From contig CAZPUV010000003.1 of the NCBI GenBank assembly GCA_964589805.1, forward strand, positions 1-29,195: DNA of 29,195 nucleotides, in the 5' to 3' direction. Source of the DNA: an uncultured bacterium (GTDB lineage Bacteria > Krumholzibacteriota > Krumholzibacteriia > WVZY01 > JAKEHA01). The notes below the pieces were generated by a model. The model had not been told where the DNA came from. It worked only from the letters and a program-made list of their open reading frames with translations, and did not search any database. A program made the translations under genes and the position numbers. Positions within the stretch are counted from its first letter, which is position 1. Each line of letters starts with the position of its first letter. Of this stretch, positions 2,751-8,500 are shown in pieces.

Positions 2751-3569
2751 TCAGGGCGACGGGATGAGTGGCTTCGCGCGGTCGCCGAACGCGACAAGGA
2801 CGCTCGTCGTCCGGGAATGCCGCGGACCCGCTTCGGGAATGCCCTTGATCGAGGGCACCGTCCGGGTCTCGCGAACGCGCTCGATCTCGCATCGCGCCAG
2901 GCGGAAGACGGGCACGTCGGGCGAACGCCACACCTTTACTCTATCGACATTCCGCTGCAACAGTTTCACGCGGCCGGCCGGAATCTCGCGCGAGACGACG
3001 TTCTCGAACTGGCGCATCTCGCCGGTGATCCTGCCCGCCGGTGTCGACACGGTGGCGCCGGGCGTGACCTTCCAGTCGCTTTCGGAGGCGGGGTGGACGA
3101 TCGTCAGCCGTGTCAGGTCCCGCGGGTCACCCTTCTCGACCGGGCCACGGCCTCTTCTAATATAGAGCCGGCTCACGTACCGGTAAAGGGAGTCTCCGGC
3201 CGCCATGGCGCGGACGGCGCCATCGACCAGGAAGCGCGCCGCATCGCGCTCACCCGCTCCGGCCCCGACCGGACCATTCTCGATCTCGAGCCAGTAGGCG
3301 TCGCGCGATTGCTCACGGCCGACCACGGCGATGTACACCTCGCTGGAATCCACCTCCCCCATCGCTTCGTCGATCACAATGTAGCGGCACCATTTCCCCA
3401 CCGCGAAATCCACGTCGCGGATGTCGATCCCGGGGAGCAGGAGCGTGCCCGTTTCGTCCGCGTACGACGCGGGCGCCAGGAGCAGCAGCGCCAGGACACC
3501 GGCCGCGCCGAGGCCGCGGCTAATGCGCGATCTGCTGCCAGTCGGCATCGTAATCGAAACCCGGGTCAT
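2751..3569 (-). CDS. Hypothetical exported protein, DUF3108-like beta-rich fold (start at 3569 or 3548)
   Basis: Hydrophobic signal (GVLALLLLAPASYA). GKWCRY, TVSTPAGR and VWRSPDVP segments resemble DUF3108-like proteins from memory. Either start overlaps the 3' end of the upstream cytochrome gene. Confidence 0.65.
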   Translation of the reverse strand: MTRVSITMPTGSRSRISRGLGAAGVLALLLLAPASYADETGTLLLPGIDIRDVDFAVGKWCRYIVIDEAMGEVDSSEVYIAVVGREQSRDAYWLEIENGPVGAGAGERDAARFLVDGAVRAMAAGDSLYRYVSRLYIRRGRGPVEKGDPRDLTRLTIVHPASESDWKVTPGATVSTPAGRITGEMRQFENVVSREIPAGRVKLLQRNVDRVKVWRSPDVPVFRLARCEIERVRETRTVPSIKGIPEAGPRHSRTTSVLVAFGDRAKPLIPSP

Positions 3570-4956
3570 CGCTCTCCGTGTGGCATTTTACACAGCTCTC
3601 GGCCGCGCGCTTCCGGTACGAGCCATCCCTGGCGTGCTCGCTCCCGGGACCGTGGCACGCCTCGCACTGCACGTCGACCAGGTCCACGAGCGCGCCGCGG
3701 GCTCGGAATCCGCGGAAACCACCCGGCTCGCCGAACCCGGTGACGTGGCACCCGACGCAACTGGTGTCGCGGTGCACGAACTGGGACGTGAGCGTGGCAT
3801 ACGCCCGCGCGTGCGCGGTCCCCATGTACACCTCGAACGCGTCCGCGTGGCACGACTGGCAGGCTCCCACGCCCAGGTAGCGGTGGCTGCCGGGACCACC
3901 GTCGGCGGACTGGAGCTGCTGGCGCGCGTAGAGCTCCTTCTGCACCTTGCGATTCTCCTCGTCGAACTCGTCGAGCCGGCGCGTCATCTCGGGGTCGTCC
4001 GGGACCGACGCGATCAGCGGATGAATACGGTTGCGACTGCCGGCCACCCGTTTCTTCGCTCCGAGCGTGATGCCGAGTTCGCCGATGAACTGGCCCTGCG
4101 ACGTCGCGCGAAGCAGCGTCGTGTTCCGGACCACGGGCGGTTCGCCGAGAGGTCCGCCCTGCGGGTCGTGCCCGAGCACGATGAAGTCGATTCCGTCGAC
4201 GGTCTCCGCGATGCGCGTCGCCTCCTCCTGGCTCATGTGCGCGAGCAGCACCATCACGTCGCAGGCGGCCCGCAGTTCGGGGGCCACCGCGCGCACCGCT
4301 TCGAGAGGATCGCCGATCGTGTACGTGAGACTCTCCACCGTGGCCGGCGTCTCCCCGCCGACCGCGCGCGCGGCCTTGGTGGCGGGCGAAATGACCCCGA
4401 GGAACCCGAATCGCGCTCCGGCCCGCCGGACGATCACGTAGGGCGGGAACGCCGTCCCGAGCCGGTCCGCCACCCGGTCCGCCGGTCCACCCGTGCGGAC
4501 CCGGAGCGAGTCCCCCCGGGCCACCAGGTTGGCACACACGATCGGAAGCCGGTACTCCCGGGCATCCCGGGCCAGGGCCGCCAGGCCGAAATTGAGGTCC
4601 ATTTCGCCCACGCCCACGGCGTCGTAGCCCAGCACCCCCATCATGCGCGCCACGAAGTGCGACTTGGCCTCGTTGAACACGTCCGCCGTGCCGAAGAAGT
4701 CTCCCGCCGTGCACAGGATCACCGGCGCCGGCCGCGACCTCAGGTCGTTGAGCAAACTCGCCCGCCGGGCGAGACCGCCAGAGGCGTTGGCGTGTCACCC
4801 GCAGGGTCGATAATAGGCGCGCGTGTCGCTCTCGTAGACCAGGCGGACGTCGGGCTCGGGCGGCGCCTCGCCGGCTGTTTCCGGCGGCGACTGCGCGAAG
4901 CCATAGGCCGCCGCGAGGACGGCGAGGAAAGGCGCGATACGAAGGAATCGAGTCAT
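3520..4956 (-). CDS. Exported UshA/5'-nucleotidase-like (seleno)protein fused to a tetraheme cytochrome c domain; in-frame TGA at 4795-4797 predicted as selenocysteine (U54); 478 aa
   Basis: ORFs 4795..5037 and 3520..4755 are in the same frame, separated only by TGA: ...YYRPCG*HANASGGLARRASLLNDL.... ATG at 4956 gives a signal peptide. Metallophosphoesterase-like segments GGLARRA, TAGDFF, LGYDAVGVGEMD and LGHD are present. Four CxxCH motifs lie at 3847-3861, 3745-3759, 3652-3666 and 3580-3594. Confidence 0.88.
4757..4773 (-). promoter_or_regulatory. Candidate bacterial SECIS hairpin
   Basis: mRNA CUCGCCC-GGC-GGGCGAG forms a perfect 7-bp stem. The loop begins with G, 29 nt 3' of the UGA. Confidence 0.6.
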
Positions 4957-5522: not shown

Positions 5523-8500
5523 TCAGAATCGTCCGATGAGGCCGCCCCCGACACCCCTGTCCCCCGATTCTGCGAACAGGTCGGGGTGCGCCTTGAGCGC
5601 GATGCGGAAGTAGTACTGCCACTCGTCGCCGAGCTGCTGGCGCGAGAAGCTCATCTCCCAGCAATGCAAGTCGCGTGTGACGCTGAAGTTCTGGCCGGAC
5701 AGCCGCTGCTGCTCGACGTCGTAGATCGTCGAGTAGTCCACGCGCCACCGGTCGGTGAGCTTGACGTCCCAGCCGACACGCAGCGTCGAATTCACGGCAC
5801 CCGTGGCACCCTTGCTGTAGCTCAGACCGAGCGACAGATTCCAGGGGAGCCTGCCCTCCTGGACGTCCAGTTCCCCGCTCTCGGACGCGGATCGCTCGCC
5901 CACGAAATCGCCGGTCTGGACGAACTCCACGCCCCCGGCGGCGAAGTCGCGACCCTTCGCGCGCGTCGCGGCGGCGGTGTCGGCCGCGGCGACCACGTTC
6001 AACTCCCTCACTTCCACCGAGGACGAACGGCCGAACGGGTGCGTCCCGCTGATACGGAATGAGGTCGTGGCGTTCGTGTTGAGAACGTCGAAGGTGTACG
6101 GATCGACGGAGTTGTTTATGGAGAGATTCGCCCCCGCGATCACGGTGTTGAAGCTGCTCCCGATCGTGCCCCACGCCTTCGACAGCGGCACATCGGGCCG
6201 ATAGCTCGTGGTCAGGTTCCAGATGACGACGCCGGAGAGCTTCTGGACGTCCTCCTCGCCGGTGGACGTCGTGTCGTCGCGGGCCACCTTGACGTCGATG
6301 GAGTTGCGCAGGCCGAGCGACACGGACTGCTGTCGCGGGCGTTCGTTGCGGGGCGGCGTGTAGCTGTACGACGCAGACGGAGATACGGCGTGACGGATTC
6401 CGCGGATCCTCCCGATGTGCGGGTAGAATGTCCCGTAGAAGTTCGTGTTCGCGCTTCCTCCCAGGCTCCATGTGAAGTCGTTCTTCGTCTCCACGGAATC
6501 GATGGCCGAGACGAAGGTGGTGTCGATGGCGTTCCCGACCCTCCGGTACTCCTCGTGCGCATCGCGCCGGAAGTCCGTCCGCGTGCTGGTGAGGCTCGTG
6601 TTGATTCCGGGCGACAGCGTCACGAAGCCCAGCTTCTGCGGGCTCGAGAAGCTCAGACCCGCGCGGCCGCTGACGACCTCGTTCCGCTCGAACAGCTTCT
6701 CGTTGACGCGGCGGCTCCCCCCCAGGGACGGCGAGTAGCGCGTGCTCCTGAGCAATCCCGACCAGAATCCATCCGCCGCGCCCGCGTCGGGCCCGAAGTA
6801 GAGGCTCCGCGATGGAATCGAGAGCGTGACGTCGGGCATGGTCATGTCCACCCGGGTGGCGTTCGGATCGACGATGTTGAGATTCTGCGTGCGGCTCGCG
6901 GATGCGCTGAACCCCACGGTGTCCCAGCTCTTGCGGACACTGGCCGTGGACCGGATCGACCGGTCGATGTAGCGATTCACGTCGTCGATGGTGTTGACAC
7001 TCTGCGGCGCGTCGTCGCTCGAGACGAACCTCAGCTGGGCATTCAGCGTGAATTTCTCGCCCAGGGTCTGACCGTGTGATCCGTCGATGGTCCACTGGGT
7101 GGACTGGTCGTTCAGATCGCGGAAATACGAGAAGTTCGCCCCCCCGTCGAACTTGTAGCGCAGGCGGTAGCGATTCTGGACGTGCGCTCGCCACGACCGG
7201 TCCTCGTTGAAATCCGTGACGAGCGTGAAGTCCGTGTAGTCGTTCGTGGCCCAGTAGTAGCCGACGTTGCGGATGAACCGCCCCGATTCTCCGGTGATGC
7301 CGAATTCGATGTCCGGCCTCAGGAACCCCGACTGCCGTCCCCGGCGTATGCTGTTGGCCATGAACGGAAGCGCGATGATGGGGGTCTTTCCGACGTGCAG
7401 CCAGATGGGCCCCGTGAAGACCTTGTCCTCCGGGTAGACCTTCATGGTCCGGGCGGCGAAGTGGTAGTGGGGTTCCGCGAGATCGCAAGTGGTGTACCAC
7501 GAGTTCCACACCTTCATCTCGTTCTCACCCACCTTGGCCATGTTCTCGCCGCTGTAGAAACCCTCCTCGTAGCGGGTGGAGCCGGAGAGCACGAGCCCCG
7601 TCTCCGTGTCCATGTCGTACTCCATGCGTTTCCCGAGCAGTTTCTGACCGCCCTCGGTGAGCACGGGTGCGCCGGCCGCGTCGAGGATCTGCAGATCGAA
7701 GTAGTACGTGATCATGTCGCCGGCCAGTTCGCTGTTGCGGTAGCGCACGCGCGCCGACTCGCGCAACACGAGCTGTTTGCGGTCGGCGAAGTACTGGACG
7801 TGCTCCGCGGCATAGGCAACCCGATCCGCGCGCGCGGCGAATGGAACGTACTGGAGGGTCGTGTCCGCGACGGCGCGAAGGCTGTCCGCGGTCTGCCCGG
7901 TGGAGAGGTCGACGTAGCGGTACACGCCATCGGACTTCCCCGATACGTCGACGTACTCGATGGCCTGGTCGCCGAAGCGGAAGAACATCTCGTCGCCGCG
8001 CACGGAGTTCCCTTCCACCTTCTTCGGGTTCGACGGGAAGTACTCGCTGGATGCGTTGCCGGTGACGCGCAGCGAGTCGAGGCCGTTGCCGTGCAGGTAG
8101 AGCGTCATGGAGTCGCCGCGGATGCGGCTGTCGCGGCCGGTCACCAGGGAGTCGCGCACCGCTTCCGTGATCTCCGCCCTGCCCTCGACATCGACGCGGT
8201 GGATCTCGCTCTCGTTGTAGAAGGCGACCATGCGTTCGCCCTTCATGGTCACGTTGTTCTGCTTCGCGATCGGATTCCCGAACAGCTCCACGCGCTTGAG
8301 ATCGTCGTAGACCATGGCGGAATCGCACTGGGTCACGGTGTTTCCCTTGAGGATCCGCACCGCGTAGTAGGCGGAGGCCCGCGAGCTGTCGGGGTAGACA
8401 CGCATGGTGTCGGCCAGGACTCGCACCGGCTCCGGATCGCCCGGGCCGGAGATCAGCTCCGGGTCCTGGTCCACGACACCCTCGCCGCGATTGCGGTAGA

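Follow-up and report, generated by a model that had tools for sequence, protein, structure and literature searches.

The window analysed here is a 29,195-nucleotide stretch of DNA from an uncultured bacterium of the class Krumholzibacteriia (contig CAZPUV010000003.1 of assembly GCA_964589805.1). Its minus strand, on which all window features described below lie, carries at positions 3520–4956 the complete gene of a UshA-like tetraheme protein that is very probably a selenoprotein. The gene is a single frame of 478 codons with a TAG stop at 3520–3522, interrupted solely by a TGA codon at 4795–4797; translated with TGA as selenocysteine (Sec, U), it yields 478 amino acids with one U at residue 54. 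Under translation table 11, a listing of open reading frames shows two pieces instead, one of 80 aa and one of 411 aa with a TTG start. Both halves match the same protein family model, NF041198, and orthologues with cysteine in place of U align with the translation end to end. A preliminary description of this DNA had placed the gene at 3520–4850; there is a gene there, but it extends to 4956, and that range left out the signal peptide.

From the N- to the C-terminus the protein comprises a signal peptide, the motifs Y-E-S-D44-T-R46, R-P-C52-G-U54, G-G-L-A-R-R-A, C-T83-A-G-D86, G-E118-M119-D120-L-N122, L-A-H240 and G262-H263-D264-P, a long helix, and four CxxCH heme-binding motifs (CQSCH 366–370, CVGCH 400–404, CEACH 431–435 and CVKCH 455–459). 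The altered motifs listed in the preliminary description (SDTR, TAGD, GEMD and GHD), the CxU motif and the four C-terminal CxxCH motifs are thus all found in the 478-aa translation. The signal peptide region (approximately residues 1 to 22 or 26; 4879–4956) reads as a basic n-region followed by a hydrophobic core and the sequence AYGFAQ, and appears in the AlphaFold 2 (AF2) model as a lone N-terminal helix, residues 2–22, with a low predicted local distance difference test score (pLDDT). The protein is predicted to be secreted into the periplasm, an export that the attachment of c-type hemes requires. Cytochrome c assembly genes are encoded in the same genome.

The in-frame TGA, which corresponds to U54 of the motif P-C-G-U, has a clear counterpart in related proteins. 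Twenty full-length orthologues with 59–66% identity can be aligned over the whole protein, signal peptide included, and carry Cys at position 54, within flanks that are identical to those of the window protein (YESDTRAYYRPCG-C). Among the loci from genome assemblies, 21 distinct ones have TGA as codon 54 and nine have a Cys codon, TGC or TGT, and 24 of the 28 close orthologues from related genomes contain exactly one TGA. Downstream of the TGA, the window gene can form a hairpin across the GGLARRA codons (4757–4773), with a 7-bp stem (CUCGCCC/GGGCGAG) and a GGC triloop; the loop lies ∼28 nucleotides past the UGA. In 20 of the 21 TGA forms, the choice of codons for GGLARRA is such that a hairpin of 7–10 bp with a GGC or GGA triloop forms in the same register, again ∼28 nucleotides past the UGA. 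Some of its pairs are kept by compensatory changes on both sides of the stem in the TGA-form loci. Comparison of the orthologous loci showed that the hairpin is absent from all nine Cys forms. We therefore consider it a putative selenocysteine insertion sequence (SECIS), an assignment based on how TGA forms differ from Cys forms. Of the machinery of selenocysteine synthesis and incorporation, selB (373 bits), selA (392 bits) and selD (231 and 142 bits on two contigs) were recovered from the genome.

Two results weigh against the decoding of UGA-54 as selenocysteine. Folding of just the 76 nucleotides downstream of the UGA gave no gain in stability over shuffled sequences (z = −0.03), and a whole-genome ARAGORN search did not find tRNA-Sec. 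The latter absence says little, because only 24 tRNAs were recovered in total from an assembly of 336 contigs that is 89% complete. An Rfam match to tRNA-Sec (RF01852, 53.5 bits, above the gathering score) on contig C301 at 2756–2842 was rejected, being tRNA-Leu(UAA) according to ARAGORN and to its sequence; within the window itself no Rfam family was matched. Taken together, the Cys orthologues with the same flanks, the restriction of the hairpin to TGA forms, the presence of selA, selB and selD, and the recurrence of a single TGA make it very probable that UGA-54 is read as selenocysteine.

Several further observations concern the TGA forms and their genomic surroundings. The residue that follows U is His in 16 of the 21 distinct TGA loci, encoded by CAC and thereby giving UGA-C (4792–4794 in the window); two of the close orthologues have Asn there, and TGA loci further removed have Leu, Ala or Asn. 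Where Cys replaces U, the orthologues continue with Asn or Ser, whereas the paralogue type has Ala. A metagenome-assembled genome of Candidatus Eisenbacteria carries two tandem UshA-like copies (L052:4148 and L052:5570); in both, the CGU motif contains a TGA and a hairpin follows downstream. The selD gene of the window's genome is divided between contigs C162 and C223, and an in-frame TGA in the C162 part (5835–6347, plus strand) suggests that SelD itself contains selenocysteine.

By far the best NCBIfam match of the protein, with U read as C, is NF041198, 'UshA_like_PCGU, UshA-like (seleno)protein' (239 bits, E = 8.8e-71). Searching the genome with this model matched both the N-terminal domain (profile positions 19–274) and the heme part (350–518), which means that the whole fusion is already contained in the curated model. 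The features that define the family are found in the window protein: a CxU motif directly after the first metallophosphatase motif, with interchange of Sec and Cys (PCGU or PCGC), and a domain similar to 5'-nucleotidases at the N-terminus joined to a C-terminal multiheme, here tetraheme, region. What sets the protein apart from the family is its score, which does not reach the 275 bits set as the equivalog cut-off. Scores among its relatives are 241 for Krumholzibacteriia orthologues, 274 for a paralogue in the same genome and 213–297 for others. The sub-threshold values place the clade of the window protein at the edge of the curated family, as a sister clade and not as a trusted equivalog. 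Membership of NF049981 ('family 2') and of UshA was rejected on score.

The family was described long before this work. 'COG0737, UshA-like', with the motif CxU, is among the major marine selenoprotein families in the 2008 analysis of Global Ocean Sampling (GOS) data by Zhang and Gladyshev, where it was represented by 76 sequences with Sec and 92 with Cys (PMC2398784). It was listed anew in reviews of 2022 and 2026 (PMC9312934, PMC13188914), the latter citing NF041198, and none of the three publications assigns it a function. A literature search combining selenocysteine, multiheme and nucleotidase returned nothing. The word 'novel' attached to this candidate oxidoreductase in the preliminary description is therefore not warranted, the family having been catalogued since 2008 and curated as NF041198 with its heme part included. 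As judged from its sequence, the window protein is a new, slightly sub-threshold member of the known, uncharacterised UshA-like selenoprotein family.

The N-terminal domain (approximately residues 37–322; 3991–4848) is of the 5'-nucleotidase metallophosphatase type. A PDB search with the family profile matched it to 5'-nucleotidases (E = 1e-43), and Foldseek matched it to CD73 (E = 1e-20) and also to UshA; fold searches with the whole model returned nothing besides 5'-nucleotidases and unnamed proteins of the same architecture. We mapped its residues by pairwise alignment to a solved 5'-nucleotidase and by profile alignment, with the roles of residues taken from the established literature on CD73 and UshA. 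The motif-I Asp is retained as D44 and the metal-bridging Asp as D86, and the two site-2 His ligands are retained as H240 and H263. The motif-I His is lost (R46), the Asn of the GNHE motif is changed (E118), and the last site-1 ligand, the Asn or Gln of the fifth motif, is lost (P265), so that two ligands of metal site 1 are missing and the full set of dimetal ligands is no longer present. G-E118-M119-D120-L-N122 aligns with G-N-H-E-F-D of the solved enzyme: the catalytic His of GNHE is lost (M119) together with its dyad partner Asp (N122), and the catalytic dyad is gone. The change from DAGD to TAGD, listed among the altered motifs in the preliminary description, removes no ligand; the pairwise alignment shows that the bridging Asp is the last D of this motif, which is kept.

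The nucleotide-binding C-terminal domain is also missing. No match to Pfam 5_nucleotid_C was found, and residues 360–478 form a heme domain in its place. What the window protein shares with 5'-nucleotidases such as UshA and CD73 is thus the N-domain fold, the GGxARRA helix, the bridging Asp, the two His ligands and the long inter-domain helix, for we take its helix at residues 322–352 (3901–3993; AF2 secondary structure) to be the linker known from the architecture of UshA. It differs from them in having M119 and N122 for the dyad, R46 for the motif-I His, a heme domain for the C-domain, and the CxU insertion. SoxB, which belongs to the same fold superfamily and exemplifies the use of this fold in sulfur chemistry, still possesses the C-domain as well as a dimanganese site, and lacks both hemes and a CxU motif. 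The SoxB model TIGR04486 scores 65.9 bits against the window protein, with a cut-off of 550. The replaced dyad, the missing C-domain and this low score argue that the protein is neither a nucleotidase nor SoxB; a 5'-nucleotidase identity is very unlikely from the sequence. The suspicion that it was probably not a nucleotidase was therefore well founded, and the SoxB-like role that had been considered beside it finds no support in the score.

The C-terminal domain (residues 360–478; 3523–3879) is a cytochrome c554-like tetraheme domain with four CxxCH motifs and the additional histidines 382, 441 and 478. It matches the Pfam family Cytochrome_C554 (PF13435) with 57.4 bits (cut-off 20.8, E = 3e-15) and, through the family profile, cytochrome c554 in the PDB (E = 1e-23), to whose structure 1bvb it was aligned; on NF043010 it scores 38 bits against a cut-off of 400. 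The domain shares with Nitrosomonas europaea cytochrome c554 (PF13435; PDB 1bvb and 1ft5) the tetraheme composition, the order of motifs, and the sequences CVGCH and CExCHGPG. Its second heme motif, CVGCH, aligns with the CVGCH of 1bvb, which we take to bind the five-coordinate heme II of c554. For the four hemes, three distal His are conserved throughout the family (382, 441 and 478), so that one heme has no conserved distal His, as is the case for heme II in c554. H395 is conserved in close orthologues and may provide a fourth. The Nitrosomonas protein stands alone and carries electrons in ammonia oxidation, whereas the window domain is fused to an enzyme-like scaffold.

Which of these features are under the strongest constraint can be read from the wider family. 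With a limit of E = 1e-30, an exhaustive search recovered representatives of 551 clusters at 50% identity. The two-part architecture is shared by most of them, and we based a conservation alignment on 141 of these representatives. The four CxxCH motifs are invariant in this alignment, as are H382 and H441, and H478 is present in 95% of the sequences. C52 and C54 are 98–99% conserved among the 89 sequences that have the N-terminus. The other 52 sequences start just past the CxC/U motif, as expected of Sec forms that have been cut by gene callers. The residues of the former active site are far more variable: H240 and H263 are just 67% conserved, D86 often gives way to N or G, hardly any sequence has the motif-I His, and GNHE has become GExD/E nearly everywhere. 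The contrast between a degenerate site and invariant CxC/U and heme motifs suggests that the scaffold has lost its old chemistry across the family and that selection acts to keep the CxC/U motif and the hemes.

Most of the related genomes also carry a Cys-form paralogue with ∼35% identity. In the genome of the window, the paralogue (contig C239; L001:1387–2838, plus strand) is 483 aa long and ∼36% identical, has SCGC for PCGU, and keeps the motifs NDLH, DAGD and GENE; it is the one that reaches 274 bits on NF041198. Elsewhere in the family, some relatives of ∼1200 aa (P0134, P0146, P0172; L093:215–3838) include a DsbA-like thioredoxin domain within the one polypeptide. In these proteins a second, N-terminal unit bearing a CxC motif and the DsbA-like domain precede the UshA-like/tetraheme module. 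Other relatives have DUF1573 Ig-like domains at the N-terminus.

Directly downstream of the UshA-like gene lies a gene for a secreted protein of ∼245–272 aa (2751–3569), whose reading frame, ∼272 aa in the window copy, overlaps the 3' end of the UshA-like gene by up to 50 nucleotides. It has no Pfam match. Its AF2 model (pLDDT 81) is a half-open beta-barrel with weak resemblance to LolA, LprG, DUF4412 and DUF3108. The gene is found directly 3' of the UshA-like gene in every orthologous locus and also in three relatives of ∼31–33% identity, and alone among the neighbours it travels with the UshA-like gene beyond the lineage. A Cys that is near-invariant in the orthologues of this LolA-like partner (near residue 183 of alignment A4) is not Cys in the window copy.

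The conserved synteny around the pair comprises FolC, ROK, LptD, HU, the UshA-like gene, the 245–272-aa partner, a secretion-tail protein, PALP, and Cys/Met enzymes dependent on pyridoxal phosphate. Beyond the partner, this neighbourhood gave no clue to function: the flanking genes are housekeeping ones (HU, LptD, ROK and FolC), with PALP downstream. Genes of the paralogue type adjoin alanine racemase and a penicillin-binding protein. The window also encodes, at 333–2723, a secreted protein of 796 aa whose C-terminal domain weakly resembles FlgD_ig; its syntenic homologue matches Por_Secre_tail, which makes the 796-aa protein a probable substrate of type IX secretion.

We favour, with moderate confidence, an account in which a dead phosphoesterase scaffold holds a reactive centre made of Cys52-Gly-Sec54, the four hemes connect this centre to the periplasmic electron-transfer network, and the LolA-like partner probably takes part. 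The former phosphoesterase fold would serve as the scaffold. The Cys52/Sec54 pair would cycle between the selenol/thiol and selenenylsulfide states, or hold bound sulfur or selenium species, and the hemes would pass electrons between this pair and a periplasmic electron-transfer network. The co-conserved LolA-like protein would probably cooperate and may deliver a hydrophobic or sulfur-containing substrate. Of three versions of the chemistry, namely a selenenylsulfide couple, a metal-selenolate centre, and a Cys/Sec pair at the heme without a conserved distal His, the selenenylsulfide couple is preferred. DsbA-like fusions and the interchange of Sec and Cys speak for thiol/selenol chemistry. 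A redox role is reasonable for a Sec/Cys pair beside an electron wire. To this extent the earlier proposal, that the protein may pass electrons between Cys/Sec and c554-like hemes, is plausible and agrees with the invariance of CxC/U and the hemes across the family. Other findings count against the favoured account. D44, D86, E118, H240 and H263 are all retained in the orthologue group, and a metal could still be bound there; the NF041198 score, as given above, lies under the equivalog cut-off; and the literature search found no experimental work on any member of the UshA-like CxU family.

The retained ligands are the starting point of the alternative that survives best, although we hold it to be rather improbable: a re-purposed centre in which D44, D86, E118, H240 and H263 bind one metal, Cys52 and/or Sec54 complete its coordination, the resulting metal-selenolate site would be where catalysis takes place, and the hemes carry electrons. 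All four equivalents of the metal-site-2 ligands are present in the orthologue group. The topology of metallophosphatases implies that the CxU loop, directly after motif I, lies on the active-site face, and exchange of Sec and Cys is also typical of Sec that ligates a metal. Sec serves as a metal ligand in [NiFeSe] hydrogenase and formate dehydrogenase. In the wider family, however, D86, H240 and H263 are often replaced while the CxC motif stays nearly constant. This suggests that a metal site is not a requirement of the family as a whole.

A second alternative, which we consider unlikely, brings the Cys/Sec pair to the hemes themselves. Cys52 or Sec54 would be the sixth ligand of the heme that matches c554 heme II, or would be placed directly over it, and the protein would act on thiosulfate, tetrathionate or polysulfide. 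Beside the four CxxCH motifs and the three further histidines (382, 441 and 478), the family has no other invariant His, Met or Lys, and C52 and C54 are the sole other invariant potential ligands; the alignment of CVGCH with the c554 motif points to the same heme, given our assumption about heme II. However, H395 could serve as the fourth distal His in close orthologues, and a plain five-coordinate heme, as in c554, fits the count of histidines equally well. TsdA, SoxAX and DsrJ, periplasmic c-type cytochromes in which a Cys beside the heme carries out sulfur redox chemistry, offer a possible working for such a centre; they have no sequence relationship to the window protein, in which ligation of heme by Cys or Sec is pure hypothesis. 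In its furthest form, which seems to us a long shot, the Cys-Gly-Sec loop would reach the equivalent of c554 heme II as a distal ligand or pocket residue and create a natural His/Sec (or His/Cys) catalytic heme, which together with the LolA-like partner would convert a substrate containing sulfur or selenium. To our knowledge, no heme enzyme of that type has been described.

It is highly improbable that the protein is still a hydrolase, either a phosphoesterase or a SoxB-like thiosulfohydrolase, with a heme domain that serves just for anchoring or sensing. In favour of this reading are the conserved fold, several remaining ligands and a distant match to SoxB (66 bits; PDB 2wdc, E = 3e-29 with the family profile). 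Against it, the protein has neither the catalytic His and Asp nor the site-1 ligands, it lacks the substrate-binding C-domain, and the SoxB model score is far below its cut-off. Least probable of all, and barely credible, is that the TGA is a true stop that leaves a pseudogene or two genes, one for a secreted peptide of 80 aa and one for a cytochrome of 411 aa that starts from the TTG at 4755: gene callers do split the gene at the TGA, many database homologues are 396–414 aa long and tRNA-Sec was not recovered, but in Cys forms the 53 residues ahead of this codon are conserved and run on without a break into the remainder, the 411-aa piece would lack the signal peptide that heme attachment requires, and the single TGA recurs at the same codon in the orthologues together with the conserved hairpin.

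The discovery of the family is thus not new. What is new here is the LolA-like partner conserved downstream, the finding of three conserved distal His for four hemes, and the DsbA-like domain in some relatives. The hypotheses about the family are narrowed by three points: the degenerate site against the invariant CxC/U motif and hemes, the three distal His per four hemes, and the co-conserved partner. The gene is also a case of a mis-split selenoprotein gene, cut by callers at the UGA into a product of 411 aa without a signal peptide, as are most of its database homologues, in a UshA-like family that its 551 clusters show to be widespread. Since each of the 41 related genomes that were searched contains the gene, the protein probably belongs to the core redox equipment of the periplasm in the Krumholzibacteriia lineage.

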